From Ruminococcus sp. (GTDB lineage: Bacteria > Bacillota > Clostridia > Oscillospirales > Acutalibacteraceae), in NCBI GenBank assembly GCA_022779485.1, contig JALFTC010000013.1, positions 34,240-98,239 on the forward strand: 64,000 bases of DNA, written 5' to 3'. How positions within the stretch are numbered: the stretch's first letter is position 1; every line of letters starts with the position of its first letter. Of the stretch, positions 839-24,423 are shown piece by piece. The notes beneath the pieces are model-generated. The model was not told the DNA's origin and searched no databases. It worked only from the letters and a program-made list of their open reading frames with translations. The position numbers and the translations under genes are program-made.

Positions 839-1078
839 TTATTTTCTCCTTTTGTTTTTCTCTTTCTTAGGAGGAACAGGGTCAAACCCACCCTTAGAAA
901 AAGGATTACACCTTAGTATCCTCCAAGCTGTCATAAGTCCTCCCTTAAAAGCACCGTGTGTACTGATAGCCTCAAGACCGTAGCTTGAACAGGTGGGATA
1001 ATACTTACATTTTGAGCTTGTGTATGGAGATATACATTTTTTGTAGAATTTAATAATTGCTATGAAAACCTTTTTCAT
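839..1078 (-). CDS. yidD: Membrane protein insertion efficiency factor YidD
   Basis: [15 protein letters not shown] and [17 protein letters not shown] motifs; synteny. Confidence 0.95.
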
Positions 1079-1422
1079 AACTTTTCTGTCCTTAAAACAT
1101 TTGCTTTCTTAAGGTGACTAAGCATTTCCTTTTTAACAAGGGTACTCTTTACATAGGGAGTTTTACCCCTTGCAACAAAAACAATGTCATATCCCGGAAT
1201 AATATCACTGTACAGATCATAGAAAGAGGCTCTGATAACTCTTCTTGCCCTACTTCTCTGTACAGCCTTACCTATTTTTTTGCTGGTAGTTATTCCGTAC
1301 CTTTTTTCATTACTTCTGTTTTTCAGAACATAGGTTACAAGAGAAGAACCTACAAAGTTTTTGCCTTTTCGGTACAATCTGAGAAAATCCCTGTTCTCTT
1401 TTAAAGTAACACCTTTTCCCAT
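1075..1422 (-). CDS. rnpA: Ribonuclease P protein component
   Basis: [30 protein letters not shown] (RNR-like motif); synteny. Confidence 0.95.
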
Positions 1423-1439
1423 GTAATCACCTTTGAGAA

Positions 1440-1475
1440 TAAAATAAAAAGAAAGACCACTTAAAAGTGGCCTTC
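1440..1475 (-). terminator. Intrinsic terminator-like hairpin between rpmH and rnpA
   Basis: Minus strand GAAGGCCACT-ttta-AGTGGTCTTTC followed by TTTTTATTTT. Confidence 0.6.
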
Positions 1476-1479
1476 ATTT

Positions 1480-1655
1480 TAAGGAAATACTGATTAAATC
1501 ATTTGCACAAATTGTATAGTCAAATTTCTCGTCATACTTCACAGACAAACCGCAGTAATACTTGACGCATTACAAGGTTTTTCGGACAAACAGACGGAAA
1601 ATATAAGGGCAAGATGCACAAATAACTTTTGAGTGATTTATTCAGCGTTTCCTTA
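1480..1655. mobile_element. 176-bp MITE-like element with 22-bp imperfect terminal inverted repeats
   Basis: Left end TAAGGAAATACTGATTAAATCA (1480-1501); reverse complement of right end TAAGGAAACGCTGAATAAATCA (1634-1655), 19/22 match. Interior is imperfectly palindromic with no ORF; the right end includes the rpmH stop codon. Confidence 0.7.
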
Positions 1656-1787
1656 ATAAGACAACTTCTTTCTACCTTTAGCTCTTCTTCTTGCTAAAAC
1701 TTTACGGCCATTCTTAGTTGCCATTCTCTTTCTGAAGCCATGCTCTTTCTTTCTATGAAGCTTTTTAGGCTGATATGTTCTCAGCAT
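1653..1787 (-). CDS. rpmH: 50S ribosomal protein L34
   Basis: Hand-translated 44 aa: [44 protein letters not shown]; GGAGG RBS upstream. Confidence 0.97.
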
Positions 1788-1834
1788 AGAAAACCCTCCT
1801 TTCGGATTTACATTACATAACCTTGCAATATAGC

Positions 1835-1863
1835 ATTATATATTATTTTGCAAATACAGTCAA
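1835..1863 (-). promoter_or_regulatory. SigA-type promoter of rpmH
   Basis: TTGACT-17 bp-TATAAT on the minus strand. Confidence 0.75.
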
Positions 1864-2034
1864 CAAAAATTTTTTATTTTTTGCTTTTTATTTTAAAGTA
1901 TTTTTTATTTTTTATTACATAGTACAATATATAGTATTTTTCTAAGTTTTGACCACAAATTATGTCAGAAAATTTTTATAAAAAACCTCATAATTTTAAT
2001 AGTAAATATATACTTATAAATGTAATTATTTTTA

Positions 2035-2063
2035 TTGCAAAATTTAACTGTTTTTGATATAAT
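2035..2063 (+). promoter_or_regulatory. SigA-type promoter of dnaA, with a downstream DnaA-box-like site TTATCCACT (2118-2126)
   Basis: TTGCAA-17 bp-TATAAT with a TG extension; a near-consensus box in the leader suggests autoregulation. Confidence 0.7.
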
Positions 2064-2164
2064 GTATAATGTATCTGTATGGGTAGATAAAACCAAGCAG
2101 AATTATTTTAAAGCAAATTATCCACTTTTTTAGATAGATAAGGAAAAATAAAGGAAGTGCAAAA

Positions 2165-3481
2165 ATGGATTCCTTCAGCGAAGCCTGGAACATAATAAGC
2201 GACTACTGCAAAAGTCAGATTACAGATGTTGCTTACAATACTTGGATTAAGAGGATTGAGCCTGTAAGCCTTGATTTTGACAAAAACGAAACAACTCTGC
2301 TTGTTCCAAACGACTTTCACCGTCAAACCCTTATGAGGTGCTACATTCCACTTCTTAATGACGCTTTTGACACAGTTTTCGGAACTCACTTTAAAATTGT
2401 TTTTCGTGTTCCCGATGAGGTTAACAATATACAGGAAAAGGAACAGAAGTCAATTGCCGAAACAGGATATGAATTTACCTTTGAAACCTTTATTGTAGGT
2501 TCTTCAAACAAATTCGCCCACGCAGCCTCAATAGCTGTTGCCCAAAATCCTGCCGGTGCATACAATCCCCTTTTCCTTTACGGAAACAGCGGTCTTGGAA
2601 AAACTCATCTTATTTGTGCTATAAGTAACGAAATAAAGAAAAATCAGCCTGACAAAAACATTGTTTATGTCAAGGGTGATGACTTTACCAACGAGCTTGT
2701 TGAGTCCATAGCCAAGGCAACCACATCTGAATTTAGAAATAAATACAGAAGTGCCGATGTTCTTTTGGTAGATGATATTCAGTTTATCGGAGGTAAGGAA
2801 AGAACACAGGAGGAATTTTTCCATACATTTAATACTCTTTATGAAGCAAATAAACAGATTGTTCTCACATCTGACCGTCCTCCAAGGGAGATTAAAACTC
2901 TTGAGGACAGACTTCGCAACAGATTCGAATCAGGTCTTCTTGCAGATATTCAACCACCTGACCTGGAAACAAGAATTGCAATTATAAAGCGTAAATCTGA
3001 AATATTAGGCATAAACCTTAACGACGATGTGTGCGAATACATAGCAAAAAATCTAAAAACAAACATTCGTCAGCTTGAGGGTGTTGTTAAAAAGTTAAAA
3101 GCAAAGATTTTGCTTTCGGGAGAAGAACCATCCCTTTCCGTAGTCAAAGAGGGAATAAGCGACATTCTCAACAACGATACTCCCCCTGAGCTTACAGTTG
3201 AAAAGATAGTAGAAGAGGTTGGCAGAAATTACGGTTTTACTGCTGATGAAATAAGGAACTCCAAAAATCACAAGGCTAACATAAGCCAAGCAAGGCATAT
3301 TGCAATTTACATTGTAAGAAGTCTTACTAACCTTTCTATGATAGAAATAGGCAAGGAGTTCGGCAACCGTCACTACACAACAATAGTTTATACTATTCAA
3401 AAAATAACTCAGCAGATGCAGGAAAATACAGCTATAAAGGAAACAATAGAGGACATAATTAAAAATATAAGGGACAGATAA
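2165..3481 (+). CDS. dnaA: Chromosomal replication initiator DnaA
   Basis: Walker A GNSGLGKTHL, Walker B LLVDDIQF, TQEEFFHTFN; domain IV is divergent (see findings). Confidence 0.98.
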   Translation: MDSFSEAWNIISDYCKSQITDVAYNTWIKRIEPVSLDFDKNETTLLVPNDFHRQTLMRCYIPLLNDAFDTVFGTHFKIVFRVPDEVNNIQEKEQKSIAETGYEFTFETFIVGSSNKFAHAASIAVAQNPAGAYNPLFLYGNSGLGKTHLICAISNEIKKNQPDKNIVYVKGDDFTNELVESIAKATTSEFRNKYRSADVLLVDDIQFIGGKERTQEEFFHTFNTLYEANKQIVLTSDRPPREIKTLEDRLRNRFESGLLADIQPPDLETRIAIIKRKSEILGINLNDDVCEYIAKNLKTNIRQLEGVVKKLKAKILLSGEEPSLSVVKEGISDILNNDTPPELTVEKIVEEVGRNYGFTADEIRNSKNHKANISQARHIAIYIVRSLTNLSMIEIGKEFGNRHYTTIVYTIQKITQQMQENTAIKETIEDIIKNIRDR

Positions 3482-3680
3482 TTTTTCACATTTTCACACA
3501 CATTCACATCACATACTTTCACAAAATGTTGAAAACTTAGCTTATCATCTTTTTTATTCACATAATTTATTTTTTTCAACATTTTTTATGTTGACTTAAA
3601 AATGTGATTATATCTATGATAGACGGACTTTTCATATATTTTCACACCCTCTAATACTACTATTATAAATTTACATAACA
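3482..3680. other. oriC (dnaA-dnaN intergenic) with DnaA boxes and a DnaA-trio-like unwinding element
   Basis: TTTTTCACA 3482-3490, TTATTCACA 3554-3562, TTTTCAACA-type sites at ~3527 (reverse) and ~3573. ATTTTCACA-CCCT is followed by CTAATACTACTATTAT (3651-3666) and an AT-rich run, as in the B. subtilis basal unwinding site. Confidence 0.85.
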
Positions 3681-3711
3681 GATCATATGAAAAACGGAGA
3701 AAGGATAAAAA

Positions 3712-21296: not shown

Positions 21297-21758
21297 ATGG
21301 ACAGACAGATTATTTTTGTAGGAGGAAAGAGGTTTACTATCGTTACTGACGAAAGCGAAGCCTATATGAAAAAGCTGGTTGAAAGAGTTGACACAAGGCT
21401 AAAGTCAATTATTTCCTCAAACCCAAAGTTAGATAAGGATTCAGCCGCCATACTTGCCTCTTTGGACTACTGTGACGAGGAGTACAAGCTCCGCCAAAAG
21501 CTTGAGGATGTTAAGGAGCAGATTAAGGATTACATTGAAGATACTGCAAGGCTCCACAAGGAAATTGCCCAGTTAAAGGCACAAAATGTGATTTTGCAGG
21601 ACAAGATTAACAAAATCCTCAACATCACTCCAACAGAGGATAAAAAGACACAGCAAAAGGAAAAGAAGATTATAGCCACAGGCAAAATAGAACATTCTGT
21701 TCCAAAAATTTTAGACGGTGCTGTTCAGCAGAGCCTTTTTAACAATGAAAAAAATTGA
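21297..21758 (+). CDS. zapA: Cell division protein ZapA with a C-terminal extension
   Basis: IFVGGKRFTIVTDESEAYMKKLVERVD...AAILASLD ZapA pattern, then a coiled coil and a disordered tail. Confidence 0.8.
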   Translation: MDRQIIFVGGKRFTIVTDESEAYMKKLVERVDTRLKSIISSNPKLDKDSAAILASLDYCDEEYKLRQKLEDVKEQIKDYIEDTARLHKEIAQLKAQNVILQDKINKILNITPTEDKKTQQKEKKIIATGKIEHSVPKILDGAVQQSLFNNEKN

Positions 21759-23796
21759 GATTTTAGCTCCCTGCGGAGGTATTGACTCTGTAATCAGCAG
21801 TGTAAACAGCGGTGCAGACGCTGTTTACCTTGGACTTAAGGACTTTTCCGCAAGGAAGGACGCAAAAAATTTTACATTTGACGAGCTTAATCAGGCTGTT
21901 TCCTACTGTCACATCAGGGGAGTAAAGGTTTATGTCACAATGAACACCCTGATTTTTGACAGCGAGATGAAGTCGGCACTTGAAACTGTAAAAAGGGCAA
22001 CTGACTGCAACATTGACGCATTGATTGTACAGGATATTGGCTTTGCAAGTCTTGTGAGGAAAGCCTGTCCAAAGTTACCTTTGCACGGCTCAACACAGAT
22101 GAGTATTCACACCCTCAGCGGGGCAAAAATGCTGAAAGATATGGGCTTTAAAAGGGTTGTTTTAAGCCGTGAAATGTCAAGAGAAGAGATAAAGTATATC
22201 GCAGATAATTGCGATATTGAGTTAGAGGTTTTTGTCCACGGGGCGCTTTGTATGAGCGTCAGCGGTCAGTGCTACTTTTCCGCAATGCTTGGCGGTCGCA
22301 GTGGTAACAGAGGCCGTTGCGCCCAAACCTGCCGACTTCCCTTTACAGTCAAGGGCAACGACCACGCACTTAGCCTGAAGGATAATTCAATCATTGACTA
22401 CATTGACGATATGGCCGAAATCGGCATAACCTCGGCAAAAATTGAGGGCAGAATGAAACGCCCCGAATATGTTTCCTCTGCTGTCCGTGCCTGTTACGAA
22501 AAGAGGGAAAAGGGTTTTATTTCCCAAAAAACATTGGAAAATTTAAGGAATGTTTTTTCCCGAACAGGCTTTACACAGGGATATTACACAGGTCAGTTGG
22601 GCAGGGAAATGTTTGGCTTTCGCAAAAGAGAGGATGTAATTTCCGCAACAGAAAGCCTTTTTAAGGAAATTCGCAATTCATACAAGGACGAAATGCCAAG
22701 AGTTCCCCTTAAGGGGAAATTTACTGCAAGGCTTGGGGAATTTCCGATATTCGAAATCACAGACGGTGAAAATACAGTTGCTGTAAAGGGAGAAGAACAG
22801 GCGGAAAAAGCCATAAAACTCCCACTTGACAGGGAAAAGGCTGAAAAACAGCTTTCAAAAACAGGTGGAACTCCCTTTTATTTTGACAATATTTCCACAG
22901 AAATTGAGGATAATATAAGTATCCCCATTTCGTCCCTTAACAAGCTAAGACGAAATGCTTTGGATGAAATTGCAGACAAGAGGGATTTTTCTCACCACTA
23001 CTCCTTTACAATGCCAAGCCTTAGTATTACCCCTGCAAACCAAGGAATTACGGAAAAAAGGGCAGAGGTAAAGAAAATTGACAGCAATATAAGCACTGAA
23101 TATGACCTTGTGTATGTTCCCATTGACTCAAAGGATGAGGATATTTCTTACCTTAGGTCAAAGGGTATAGAGGTTGGTGTGTCAGTTCCACGAGGACTAT
23201 TTGGCAGAGAAGAAAAAGTCATCAGCAGATTAAAGGAACTAAAAGAAAAGGGAATAAATCATCTGCTGTGCAACAACCTCGGTGCTGTCTATTTTGGCAA
23301 GGCACTTGGGTTTAAGGTACACGGCGGAGAATTTTTAAACCTTACAAATACATTTTCCCTAATTTGGGCAGAGGATTACGGTCTTGAGGATGTAACACTT
23401 TCCATTGAGCTTACTGTGGAGCAGATTAACGCACTTGGGGGAAATATAAGGAGAGGTGTTGTCGCCTACGGATATATACCACTTATGCTCACTCGGAACT
23501 GCCCTGTAAAAAGCGGAAATGAGGATTGCAGAACTTGCAAAAAAAGAGGAAAAATGCAAGACCGTAAGAATTACCAATTTTCTCTATATTGCGACGGAAT
23601 TTGCACTGAGGTACTGAATTCGGTACCGCTTTTAATTCCTGAAAGGAATAAAAAAGAGTTTTTCACATTTTTCACAACGGACAGGTTCTATGTGGAAAAC
23701 TATGTGGAAAAAGTGGAAAACTACAAGGGAAACCATAGTAAAACTCTGGAAAAAGTTAATTTTACCCGTGGATTGTATTATCGTGGGGTTAAATAA
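21745..23796 (+). CDS. U32 family protein with a long C-terminal region (RlhA/TrhP-like RNA hydroxylation protein; start moved to ATG 21745)
   Basis: EILAPCG, GADAVYLG, HGSTQM, HGALCMSVSGQC...NRGRCAQTCR Fe-S cysteines, KIEGRMK, terminal FTRGLYYRGV. Confidence 0.85.
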   Translation: MKKIEILAPCGGIDSVISSVNSGADAVYLGLKDFSARKDAKNFTFDELNQAVSYCHIRGVKVYVTMNTLIFDSEMKSALETVKRATDCNIDALIVQDIGFASLVRKACPKLPLHGSTQMSIHTLSGAKMLKDMGFKRVVLSREMSREEIKYIADNCDIELEVFVHGALCMSVSGQCYFSAMLGGRSGNRGRCAQTCRLPFTVKGNDHALSLKDNSIIDYIDDMAEIGITSAKIEGRMKRPEYVSSAVRACYEKREKGFISQKTLENLRNVFSRTGFTQGYYTGQLGREMFGFRKREDVISATESLFKEIRNSYKDEMPRVPLKGKFTARLGEFPIFEITDGENTVAVKGEEQAEKAIKLPLDREKAEKQLSKTGGTPFYFDNISTEIEDNISIPISSLNKLRRNALDEIADKRDFSHHYSFTMPSLSITPANQGITEKRAEVKKIDSNISTEYDLVYVPIDSKDEDISYLRSKGIEVGVSVPRGLFGREEKVISRLKELKEKGINHLLCNNLGAVYFGKALGFKVHGGEFLNLTNTFSLIWAEDYGLEDVTLSIELTVEQINALGGNIRRGVVAYGYIPLMLTRNCPVKSGNEDCRTCKKRGKMQDRKNYQFSLYCDGICTEVLNSVPLLIPERNKKEFFTFFTTDRFYVENYVEKVENYKGNHSKTLEKVNFTRGLYYRGVK

Positions 23797-23841
23797 TGTG
23801 AAAAACTTTATATTTTGTTAAAAGAATATTTATGTGGAAAA
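23659..23841. promoter_or_regulatory. DnaA-box cluster (6 exact TTWTNCACA plus 2 single-mismatch sites)
   Basis: Plus strand: TTTTTCACA 23659-67 and 23668-76. Minus strand: TGTGGAAAA 23691-99, 23703-11, 23833-41 and TGTGAAAAA 23797-805; near matches AGTGGAAAA 23712-20 and TCTGGAAAA ~23746. Confidence 0.75.
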
Positions 23842-23867
23842 CTTTTATTTTCTGTTACAGAATTAAT

Positions 23868-23896
23868 TTGTGAAGTGTTTATTAACAGTTTATAAT
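23868..23896 (+). promoter_or_regulatory. Putative dut promoter
   Basis: TTGTGA-17 bp-TATAAT immediately downstream of the last DnaA box. Confidence 0.5.
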
Positions 23897-23979
23897 TATA
23901 TTATTTTAAAGAATTTATATAGAGAATTAAGAACATAAAATTGCAAGATAACATAGATTTTTGCAGGAAGGTGGAGTAA

Positions 23980-24423
23980 ATGGAAACATTAAAGATAAAA
24001 AGGATACGAAAGGATGCAAAAATCCCAAAAAGGGCAACTCCCGGCTCGGCAGGTATGGACTTGTGCGCCTGTATTGAACAGGAGGTCACAATAAACCCCG
24101 GCGATTTGGTGATAATTCCAACAGGAATTGCCATTGCTCTGCCCTCAAATAAATATATGGCAAACATCTATGCCCGCAGCGGATTGGGAGTGAAACACGG
24201 GATTTGCCTTTCTAACGGTGTGGGTGTTGTTGACAGCGACTACCGTGGGGAAGTTTGCGTTGGTCTTTGTAATGTTTCAAAAAAACCATACACCGTAACA
24301 CCGGGAGAAAGAGTTGCCCAGCTTGTGACTCAACCTGTTTCTGTTATGGAAACTGAAGAGGTGGATGAATTGGACGACACTTCCCGAGGGGAAGGTGGCT
24401 TTGGCTCAACAGGAAAAAAATAA
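23980..24423 (+). CDS. dut: dUTP pyrophosphatase
   Basis: GSAGMDL, ARSGL, GVVDSDYRGE, RGEGGFGSTG. Confidence 0.96.
   Translation: METLKIKRIRKDAKIPKRATPGSAGMDLCACIEQEVTINPGDLVIIPTGIAIALPSNKYMANIYARSGLGVKHGICLSNGVGVVDSDYRGEVCVGLCNVSKKPYTVTPGERVAQLVTQPVSVMETEEVDELDDTSRGEGGFGSTGKK

Follow-up and report, generated by a model that had tools for sequence, protein, structure and literature searches.

The 3' end of a U32-family gene of an uncultured Ruminococcus sp. carries a conserved candidate DnaA-binding site, located outside the origin of replication yet close to it. This site is well supported by synonymous-site conservation together with a box density found nowhere else in the genome, and its core is unchanged across the genus even at silent positions, which argues for a real off-origin DnaA site. 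We favor, with a probability slightly above even, its interpretation as a non-origin DnaA-box cluster (DBC) of the Bacillus subtilis type, genus-conserved and origin-proximal, which would sequester DnaA and possibly also regulate dut. In Firmicutes, control of initiation is mainly ascribed, as a candidate mechanism, to such off-origin clusters; how they work is not settled, and B. subtilis has supplied nearly all of the data.

Organization of the Cluster at the End of the U32 Gene

The window, i.e., the whole stretch of 64,000 nucleotides analyzed, contains 26 exact matches to the DnaA box TTWTNCACA, when 11.6 ± 3.2 are expected and none of 100 shuffles reaches 26. By motif scan, six exact boxes and one one-mismatch box, at 23712, are gathered within 183 bp (23659–23841; Table 1). 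This is in agreement with the preliminary description, which had counted six exact boxes and two near matches in ~185 bp; near matches were found here at 23712 and 23879. As it had also reported, the boxes lie partly inside the U32 gene: the first five sites (four exact boxes and the one at 23712) fall within the final ~140 nt of the ORF, which reads ...EFFTFFTTDRFYVENYVEKVENYKGNHSKTLEKVNFTRGLYYRGVK. Most boxes of the cluster are of the form TTTT(C/T)CACA and do not correspond to the highest-affinity TTATCCACA.

The core of the cluster is a double DnaA box arranged as a direct repeat with a 3-bp spacer. The box at 23712 completes it into a triple module with a 12+9-bp layout, which spans 30 bp (23691–23720) and reads TGTGGAAAA-CTA-TGTGGAAAA-AGTGGAAAA on the + strand and GTTTTCCACT-TTTTCCACA-tag-TTTTCCACA on the box strand, i.e., two abutting boxes, 3 bp and a box. 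It is contained in the last 35 codons of the U32 coding sequence, where it encodes xVENxVE(N/K)VEN.

Table 1. Positions of the features discussed, numbered from the first nucleotide of the window.
Feature	Position	Strand	Sequence, basis or remark
dnaA	2165–3481		
dnaA-dnaN spacer, putative oriC unwinding region	3482–3711	+	second-ranked box cluster in the genome
DnaA-trio-like array	3651–3665		CTAATACTACTATTA; in the dnaA-dnaN spacer, after the box at 3639
U32-family gene (Peptidase_U32 + DUF3656; TrhP/UbiU-like)	21718–23796	+	ORF; Pfam 1.8e-73; NCBIfam match
Forward pair, abutting	23659–23676	+	TTTTTCACA TTTTTCACA; codes F-F-T-F-F-T
Exact box	23659–23667	+	TTWTNCACA match
Exact box	23668–23676	+	TTWTNCACA match
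Core double DnaA box	23691–23711	-	+ strand TGTGGAAAA-CTA-TGTGGAAAA; box strand TTTTCCACA-tag-TTTTCCACA
Exact box	23691–23699	-	TTWTNCACA match
Exact box	23703–23711	-	TTWTNCACA match
Third, degenerate box	23712–23720	-	AGTGGAAAA (TTTTCCACT), one mismatch; abuts the box at 23703
Exact single box	23797–23805	-	TGTGAAAAA; begins 1 base past the U32 TAA stop
Exact single box	23833–23841	-	TGTGGAAAA; in the U32-dut spacer
Sigma-70-like match, candidate dut promoter	23868–23896	+	TTGTGA-17-TATAAT; consensus scan, 10/12 positions
Near match	23879		TTATTAACA
Direct repeat	23941–23968	+	TTGCAAGA ... TTGCAGGA; just 5' of the dut ribosome-binding site; genus-conserved
dut (dUTPase)	23980–24423	+	ORF; Pfam dUTPase 1.3e-33

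Rarity in the Genome and Position Relative to the Origin

The preliminary description had called the cluster dense, and a genome-wide scan shows that its density is unique in the assembly. Among the 461 exact boxes of the 2.02-Mb assembly, it is the only place with at least three boxes per 200 bp. When the relaxed word TTYCACA is used, at least four matches per 250 bp are found only in the cluster (six matches) and in the dnaA-dnaN spacer (four matches), vs. 0.18 clusters of at least four and 0.000 of at least six with randomly placed relaxed sites. The local box density is thus far above the genome background, as in a DBC. A third box cluster (C47:7049–7259) was judged to result from chance, since it is sparse and lies wholly within a surface-protein gene.

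The distance of 20 kb from oriC, as previously proposed, is correct. The GC-skew minimum of the contig (C11) is found at ~1.8–3.8 kb of the window, i.e., at dnaA, and GC skew and the DnaA-trio-like array, whose genus consensus is CCTACTACTACTACTAAAAATAAT, together lead us to place oriC in the dnaA-dnaN spacer. The boxes of this spacer are degenerate (TTTTTCACA, ATTTTCACA, TGTTGAAAAC, TTATTCACA, TTTTCAACA). The cluster, 20 kb away, is outside oriC yet close, and this proximity is general, the boxes being found 13–49 kb from dnaA in 9/9 genomes that have both on one contig.

The basal unwinding system at oriC reportedly combines a DnaA-box pair, DnaA-trios and an AT-rich DUE. The U32 site is similar to it in having a tandem pair of boxes in the same orientation, but it differs by the lack of DnaA-trios, the trio-like array and the skew switch being at dnaA-dnaN. 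These features bear on the earlier proposals that the cluster could be a backup origin or a DARS-like core of opposed boxes. It is highly improbable that it acts as a second or backup replication origin, or as a DARS-like site regenerating ATP-DnaA, even though its boxes are the densest of the genome, above the dnaA flanks, an AT-rich tract follows them and the window's own clade has opposed boxes. Indeed, no DnaA-trio array was found in 23590–23990, so that the cluster does not appear to be a second origin, and there is no skew switch at the cluster; a backup origin was rejected on these two grounds. The trio-like array that follows a box in the dnaA-dnaN spacer is, by contrast, conserved in the genus. 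As to a DARS, which has a conserved core of opposed boxes I/II, with box III and IHF/Fis sites, the forward boxes that provide the opposition at the cluster are conserved only in the close clade, the part kept genus-wide being a triplet in the same orientation. The core of the cluster moreover sits in an intact and conserved gene. We know of no IHF, Hda, SeqA or datA in Firmicutes, where Fis is, to our knowledge, not applicable either.

Constraint on the Silent Positions of the Core

The triple core is kept in all 25 genus relatives examined, whose U32 proteins are only 48–58% identical. Each position of the double box, including all third codon positions, is conserved in 22–25 of these 25 species, and GGAAAA of the third box in 21–25. 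Conservation reaches one base past the 9-mer (C at 23700, in 24/25 species), and every conserved unit fits TTWTNCACA exactly. At a larger scale, the exact 21-mer of the core is present in 95/151 genus genomes and its reversed control in none.

The constraint on third positions was measured in 20 species, in which the GC content of U32 ranges from 35 to 58%. Third codon positions are 85–100% conserved in the core, vs. a gene mean of 53%. The third-position major-allele frequency of the seven box codons is 0.957, the highest of the ~680 seven-codon windows of U32, when the next non-overlapping window is at 0.736 and the gene mean at 0.53. In particular, the Glu codons of the boxes are GAA in 100% of the species, vs. 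45% (80% at most) at 13 other columns with a conserved Glu, and their Val codons are GTG in 85–90%, vs. 23% at the comparison columns. Codons 659 and 663 vary in the amino acid that they encode (S, Y, T, F, N), whereas their third base, a T corresponding to box position 1, is 100% conserved. Codon-usage bias was ruled out as the cause of this conservation by comparison with the other columns of U32 in which Glu, Val or Asn is conserved. The question, raised in the preliminary description, of whether U32 orthologs keep the boxes at synonymous sites thus receives a strongly positive answer for the core pair. Judging from these silent sites, the triple module is held by selection acting on DNA rather than on protein.

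The opposite view, that conservation is due to the protein or the mRNA, i.e., to VENxVENVEN with a set codon usage or to a hairpin of forward and reverse boxes, is highly improbable, and these comparisons, together with the analysis of RNA structure, largely refute it. It is true that F-T-V-E-N is ancestral in U32 outgroups, and that the forward and reverse boxes of the window's own sequence would fold as a hairpin (-20.1 kcal/mol, z = -3.5). However, a conserved RNA structure was rejected, as the 25 species yield no consensus structure (0 predicted pairs). In addition, the synonymous sites are fixed against the codon usage of U32 itself, the third base is kept where the amino acid varies, no overlapping ORF is found at the cluster on either strand, and the module is found outside coding sequence as well, running along the direction of transcription at some loci and against it at others.

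Conservation of the accessory boxes, i.e., the forward pair and the two intergenic boxes, is restricted to a shallow clade with six close relatives (L064–L069; 72–97% U32 identity). The first forward box is kept in 6/6 of them, reading TTTTCCACA in L069, and the second is kept in L064–L068 and lost in L069; the rest of the genus has merely weak, partial counterparts. The box at 23797 is kept in this clade, L069 having TGTGGAAAA, which is altered only at the free N position despite diverged flanks. The box at 23833 is also kept in the clade (TGTGAAAAA in L069) and is not conserved genus-wide.

Occurrence of the Module Outside the U32 Gene

The distribution of the triple module indicates that it is independent of U32. 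In eight other genus genomes, the same 21-mer and third box are intergenic, upstream of a small ORF and opposite to the direction of transcription. This second copy is located ~155 bp upstream of the small ORF and is surrounded by conserved motifs that resemble promoters; the ORF has no match in Pfam or NCBIfam. The window's own genome also has a degenerate copy, at C52:14193. Within the order Oscillospirales, the 3-bp-spaced pair is found in 66/201 genomes, vs. ~6 for the reversed control, and the complete layout of two abutting boxes, 3 bp and a box is also found in other families. Among 20 sampled order-wide sites, three adjoin dnaA, seven adjoin tsaD and one adjoins mnmE. No tsaD- or mnmE-linked cluster was found in the window's own genome, nor a tsaD-linked cluster at the tsaD gene of 22 other genus genomes.

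The protein that recognizes the module could in principle be another DNA-binding protein, e.g., Spo0A, rather than DnaA, which we regard as very unlikely. The 0A box overlaps DnaA boxes in B. subtilis oriC, and its sequence TGTCGAA resembles TGTGGAA; a single central base presumably separates TGTGGAAAAC from the extended 0A-box consensus. The conservation one base beyond the 9-mer could also fit Spo0A, as could the non-canonical recognition signature of the genus DnaA, which in 11/14 species is RHY[ST]T, the canonical form being RDH[ST]T. This altered signature implies that affinities are not transferable from Escherichia coli or B. subtilis. However, the three species with a canonical RDH DnaA (G005, G008, G010) keep the same boxes, and all conserved units fit TTWTNCACA when none has the C-G core of the 0A box. 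Furthermore, the same words compose the dnaA-dnaN spacer beside the DnaA-trio array, the same module adjoins dnaA in other families, and the 3-bp spacing is that of a DnaA dimer (PMC11317965).

Comparison With Known DnaA-Box Systems

In B. subtilis, ChAP-chip-verified DnaA sites include rpmH-dnaA, dnaA-dnaN, gcp(tsaD)-ydiF and jag-thdF(mnmE), and all eight stable DnaA sites mapped are in intergenic DNA only (PMC2533591). The oriC-proximal DBCs are gcp-ydiF, jag-thdF, yydA-yycS, ywlC-ywlB, ywcI-vpr and yqeG-sda (Ishikawa, 2007, PMC2533591; Okumura, 2012, PMC3245932), and they are most effective when oriC-proximal (PMC3245932). The Ruminococcus cluster is similar to them in its dense consensus boxes and its off-origin but near position, with a predicted stable DnaA binding that would restrain initiation and/or regulate the neighboring genes; likewise, the module family adjoins dnaA, tsaD (gcp) and mnmE (thdF) in sister families of the order. 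It differs from them in several respects. The core and the forward pair are inside the U32 ORF, only the two single boxes being intergenic; its position is kept across a deep genus, as judged from U32 identity, whereas most Bacillus positions are species-specific; its box form is TTTTCCACA and not TTATCCACA; and the genus is without the tsaD-linked cluster. What is new with respect to the known kind of DBC is a cluster embedded in coding sequence under dual constraint.

The double DnaA box described in vivo in E. coli is composed of two direct boxes, 2 or 3 bp apart, e.g., ...ACAgagTTATCCACAg in datA (PMC11317965), and is found among others at datA, DARS2, purH, polA and nrdA (Stringer, Fitzgerald & Wade, 2024, PMC11317965). 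The Ruminococcus core is likewise made of two 9-mers in the same orientation with a 3-bp spacer, for which 'gag' is common to both, most genus species reading TTTTCCACAgagTTTTCCACA. Unlike the E. coli pair, in which one box is usually weak, both Ruminococcus boxes are near-consensus and are supplemented by a third, adjoining one (12+9 bp); phylum and DnaA recognition signature are also different. datA itself, a locus of DnaA titration and DnaA-ATP hydrolysis, is, like the U32 site, an off-origin cluster, and its high-affinity boxes would lower the initiation potential after its replication, but it requires IHF and is 470 kb distant from oriC; the Ruminococcus cluster gives no grounds for proposing a hydrolysis function.

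Possible Role in the Control of Initiation

From the sequence, we infer that DnaA would bind the cluster and be titrated by it. The 3-bp-spaced pair could be bound cooperatively by a DnaA dimer or oligomer, which would be extended, in the window's own clade, over the forward pair and the two intergenic boxes. The cluster would be copied within seconds of initiation, and its duplication would thereby double a strong DnaA sink beside the origin. Less DnaA would then be free and re-initiation would be delayed, as for the oriC-proximal DBCs of B. subtilis. Transcription entering or starting at dut might be affected secondarily.

A bolder version of this proposal, which we consider improbable, is that the strongest DnaA-binding element of the chromosome would be inside a housekeeping gene 13–49 kb from the origin, the origin boxes being few and degenerate. 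Control of initiation would depend on this element in cis, as a DnaA reservoir or timer that resets the cycle when it is duplicated, and the element would have replaced the ancient tsaD-linked cluster of sister families. xVENxVENVEN would then be dictated by a replication-control element, a box that had arisen by chance in ancestral T-V-E-N codons having been duplicated in frame by 12 bp and by 9 bp.

Whatever its exact role, the module is compact (30 bp), strict in its geometry, conserved in >90 species of a gut/rumen genus and recurrent through Oscillospirales. Its location within a gene makes it a clean natural experiment, in which silent recoding would part the DNA function from the protein. 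Its fixed synonymous sites point to the box positions that matter to a lineage whose DnaA has an altered recognition signature, and the module appears as a clear case in which regulatory DNA constrains, and probably gave rise to, part of a protein sequence.

Relation to dut

dut is followed by mreB, mreC, mreD and pbp2 (MreB Pfam 1.8e-149). As the site is upstream of dut, and as DnaA sites of E. coli are found at promoters of nucleotide-metabolism genes, gene regulation could be the selected function instead of titration. According to this possible, though rather unlikely, explanation, DnaA bound to the 3' end of U32 and to the spacer would activate, repress or roadblock transcription of dut (perhaps also of mreBCD-pbp2), which would link the state of initiation with dUTP sanitation and with wall growth, and titration would be a by-product. 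It is consistent with the position of the cluster, 140–320 bp upstream of the dut start, with the single boxes of the window's own clade (23797 and 23833), which bridge towards the promoter-like sequence at 23868–23896, and with the U32-dut synteny, seen in 23/25 genus loci, the other two ending at a contig end. The promoter-like surroundings of the second module copy, upstream of its small ORF, point in the same direction. So do data from other bacteria: E. coli DnaA ChIP-seq sites are mostly at nucleotide-synthesis or replication genes (nrdA, nrdD, purH, polA; PMC11317965), and sda, ywlC and yydA are regulated by B. subtilis DBCs (PMC2533591).

Other observations argue against it. The putative dut promoter of the preliminary description is no more than a consensus match, and it is not conserved past the nearest relatives: its -10 hexamer is lost in L066–L068, the TATAAT promoter being clade-specific. 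The core is ~165 bp upstream of this sole promoter-like match, and the bridging boxes are also clade-specific. The U32-dut synteny is found in families without boxes too (L027, L030), which implies that dut does not need the boxes. Finally, elsewhere in the order the module is found at convergent 3' ends, e.g., downstream of tsaD, where regulation is unlikely, the same argument having been made for gcp-ydiF (PMC2533591). On the basis of these sequence features, a titration site and a DnaA switch on dut, both of which had been suggested in the preliminary description, are two live candidates. Between the cluster and dut, the genus-conserved direct repeat has the alignment consensus TTTGCAnGA...ATTTTGCAnGAA.

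DnaA-box cluster at the 3' end of the U32 gene

The DnaA-box cluster noticed in the preliminary description at the 3' end of the U32 gene is confirmed: six exact TTWTNCACA matches lie within 23659-23841, and the first five sites, with a one-mismatch box counted in, fall in coding sequence, within the final 140 nt of a gene encoding a 692-aa U32-family protein (Peptidase_U32 + DUF3656), where they encode the peptide ...FFTFFTTDRFYVENYVEKVEN... The gene is preceded by zapA and followed by dut, mreB, mreC, mreD and a PBP2-like gene.

DnaA-box sites of the U32 cluster (window positions)
Feature	Position	Strand	Match
Two abutting forward boxes, TTTTTCACA TTTTTCACA	23659-23676	+	exact
Two reverse boxes, TGTGGAAAA CTA TGTGGAAAA, 14 bp past the forward pair (core pair)	23691-23711	-	exact
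Third reverse box, AGTGGAAAA, abutting the core pair	23712-23720	-	one mismatch
Single reverse box, first base after the U32 stop codon	23797	-	exact
Single reverse box	23833	-	exact

The window contains 26 TTWTNCACA boxes where 11.6 are expected and, among the 461 boxes of the 2.02-Mb assembly, the U32 cluster is the sole place with at least three within 200 bp, so that the density which had first drawn attention is unique genome-wide. When the relaxed word TTYCACA is used, at a threshold of at least four per 250 bp, just the U32 site (6) and the dnaA-dnaN spacer (4) are retrieved from the whole genome, the U32 cluster reaching seven sites if the origin's C6>A variant is added. Random placement gives 0.18 clusters of at least four words and none of at least six. 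The excess of boxes, their genome-unique density and the random placement all indicate that the cluster is beyond chance. A sparse group of four relaxed DnaA-like words in 210 bp on another contig (C47:7049-7259), all inside the gene of a 499-aa secreted repeat protein, is probably due to chance.

Conservation of the core at silent positions

The box element is found at the same codons in all 24 other species of the genus that were compared, although their U32 proteins are only 48-58% identical. Positions 23691-23711 are conserved in 22-25 of 25 species, according to per-column counts, every third codon position included; variation is free at 23702 (position 2 of the middle codon) and at positions 1 and 2 of the codon that precedes box 1. 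As to whether orthologs keep the boxes at synonymous sites, the answer is positive for the core pair: in a codon alignment of 20 species (U32 GC 35-58%), the mean third-position major-allele frequency is 0.957 in the seven-codon window of the box pair, the top of ~680 windows, versus 0.736 in the next non-overlapping window and a gene mean of 0.53. A third-position conservation of 0.85 is reached by just 5% of the codons outside the box, and the naive probability of seven such codons consecutively is ~1e-9.

Both box Glu codons are GAA in 100% of species, versus 45%, and at most 80%, across 13 further conserved Glu columns, and the box Val codons are GTG in 85-90%, versus 23% elsewhere; a protein-level or codon-bias constraint was rejected, as Glu and Val columns elsewhere in U32 lack this codon fixation. 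Moreover, two codons vary among S, Y, T, F and N while the T at their third position (box position 1) is fixed in every species. Since silent positions are fixed and amino-acid-variable codons keep their third base, the box pair is conserved by selection on the nucleotide sequence and not on the peptide. An overlapping ORF at the core was rejected by ORF scan.

The exact 21-mer TGTGGAAAA-NNN-TGTGGAAAA is present in 95 of 151 genus genomes and its reversed control in none of the 151; the other species examined carry variants with one mismatch, e.g., TGTTGAAAA, also the origin-spacer variant. All members of the close clade (72-97% U32 identity) retain five of the six exact boxes. The exception is the second forward box, missing from the most distant member, in which three boxes are changed at the free N position alone and the intergenic flanks have diverged. 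The forward pair, the two intergenic boxes and a TATAAT promoter match show no genus-wide conservation; the proposed DARS-like core was therefore rejected, its opposed arrangement not being conserved across the genus.

Within the clade of the window, forward and reverse boxes together make up a 19-bp interrupted inverted repeat (23657-23722; RNA fold -20.1 kcal/mol, z = -3.5), which could locally adopt a cruciform or, in mRNA, a 3' hairpin, but the 25 species are without a consensus structure and conserved mRNA structure was rejected.

Position relative to oriC, and DnaA itself

On contig C11, cumulative GC skew is lowest at window ~1.8-3.8 kb, at dnaA (2165-3481). oriC is in the dnaA-dnaN spacer, which holds the degenerate boxes TTTTTCACA, ATTTTCACA, TGTTGAAAAC, TTATTCACA and TTTTCAACA and, immediately after the box at 3639, a DnaA-trio-like array, CTAATACTACTATTA. 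This array before dnaN is strongly conserved in the genus (consensus CCTACTACTACTACTAAAAATAAT), and none is present near the U32 cluster. These results place the cluster 20 kb from oriC, as initially stated, and lead us to reject a second, or backup, origin at this site. The U32 boxes are 13-49 kb from dnaA in all nine genomes with both on one contig.

Canonical TTWTNCACA boxes are scarce at the dnaA flanks in the genus (0-3 per locus; window 891-2165 and 3482-3711, and loci L042-L055); the outgroup genome G029 has seven beside dnaA. In domain IV of DnaA (window 3260-3400; alignment A3), 11 of 14 genus species read G(N/G)RHY(S/T)TI(I/V)YT, and the outgroups and three genus species GRDH(S/T)T(V/I)x(H/Y)A. 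Both substitutions, D>H and H>Y, are within the base-contacting signature of the recognition helix; the basic-loop Arg (A/P-R-H/Q) is retained. The box repertoire looks alike with either signature, species with the canonical RDH[ST]T keeping the same boxes. Because RHY[ST]T replaces it in 11/14 species, DnaA affinities from model organisms are not transferable.

The triple module outside U32

A second copy of the 21-mer with the third box occurs in several genus genomes. It is intergenic in eight of them (L031 1775-2439; L032-L036, L039, L040), ~155 bp ahead of an ORF of 87-88 aa, and reads TTTTCCACA on the sense strand, inverted relative to the U32 copy. The window's own assembly has a degenerate copy (TGTGGAAAActaTGTGAAAAG and two TTTTCAACA) at C52:14193, upstream of the orthologous ORF (C52:13840-14340, outside the window). 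The ORF, after which come a DUF6512 gene and rlmB, matches no Pfam or NCBIfam family and is a candidate DnaA-regulated small gene. Its product reads MxxGxxxQVIEVT(D/E)T(E/N)NxYYExALLV... and has a C-terminal TM segment; on either side of the module there are the arms of a conserved inverted repeat, ATATACTATTTGTATTATTC ... TACAAATAGTAATAT..GTCAACA.

Across Oscillospirales, the 3-bp-spaced pair is found in 66 of 201 genomes and 47 of 121 genera (reversed control, ~6 genomes), and in none of 10 other genomes of the same family. Most of 20 sampled sites (L071-L090; GC 30-66%) share the 12+9-bp triple layout, e.g., TGTGGAAAActcTGTGGAAAAcGTGGAAAA, showing that the module exists independently of U32. 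Three adjoin dnaA (two ~350 bp upstream, one ~50 bp downstream) and seven tsaD; one lies before mnmE, one beside a DnaC/DnaI-like loader gene and one between tsaD and rex. The tsaD-linked cluster is absent from the window's genus. The tsaD and mnmE contexts mirror those of B. subtilis, where four of eight stable DnaA-binding sites are rpmH-dnaA, dnaA-dnaN, gcp(tsaD)-ydiF and jag-thdF(mnmE) (PMC2533591). Recognition of the repeats by another factor, e.g., Spo0A, is unlikely, as every repeat unit agrees with the DnaA consensus and the module is located at dnaA and beside trio arrays.

Possible function and origin of the element

All our results reveal a DnaA-box cluster that lies within coding sequence, is under dual constraint and has been conserved throughout a deep genus, and to which DnaA putatively binds. 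The initial interpretation is thus partly supported: the sequence points to an off-origin DnaA site, neither an origin nor DARS-like.

In vivo, E. coli DnaA binds almost exclusively at same-orientation box pairs 2-3 bp apart, typically reading ...ACAgagTTATCCACAg, and a 1-bp insertion abolishes binding (Stringer et al., 2024; PMC11317965). The genus core, TTTTCCACA-gag/tag-TTTTCCACA on the box strand, has the same architecture. A DnaA dimer or oligomer could bind the triple module cooperatively, and the complex might extend across the forward pair and two spacer boxes in the clade of the window.

In B. subtilis, DnaA-box clusters (DBCs) are dense boxes outside oriC, stably bound by DnaA and mostly origin-proximal; joint deletion of six advances initiation, a single re-insertion restores control best near oriC, and certain DBCs also regulate adjacent genes (Ishikawa 2007, PMC2533591; Okumura 2012, PMC3245932). 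Similar clusters are predicted in many Firmicutes (Okumura 2012, PMC3245932). By analogy, the U32 cluster would most likely act by titration: as the locus would be copied almost at once after initiation, its duplication would double a strong sink beside oriC and lower free DnaA.

The main rival is a direct effect on dut. A site upstream of this nucleotide-metabolism gene would fit the E. coli DnaA regulon, centred on genes of nucleotide synthesis and replication (PMC11317965), but any promoter-like site is distant from the conserved core, the bridging boxes are confined to the clade, and other families have U32-dut synteny without boxes. DBC-like titration remains the preferred reading, and the element makes DBC function outside Bacillus cleanly testable.

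As to its origin, outgroup U32 proteins have F-T-[VIL]-E-(N) at the corresponding place, and the codons ACT GTG GAA AAC already contain a perfect box; in-frame duplications of 12 bp and 9 bp could then have generated the 12+9 triplet along with the xVENxVENVEN peptide.

Genus-conserved elements unrelated to DnaA boxes were also observed in the U32-dut spacer (23806-23975): a pair of GGAAA(N8-12)TTTCC-type inverted repeats and a direct repeat, TTTGCA(A/G)GA ... TTTTGCAGGAA, which ends at the dut ribosome-binding site. These may be the real dut control elements. Finally, the ZapA-like protein ends in a genus-conserved ...(R/V)Q(Y/Q)SLF(D/N/E)... motif (window 21700-21758; same place in L002-L025; alignment consensus GGCTATGTnCCnATGAGnCAGTAnnCnCTTTTTGA), which resembles the beta-clamp-binding QL[SD]LF motif.
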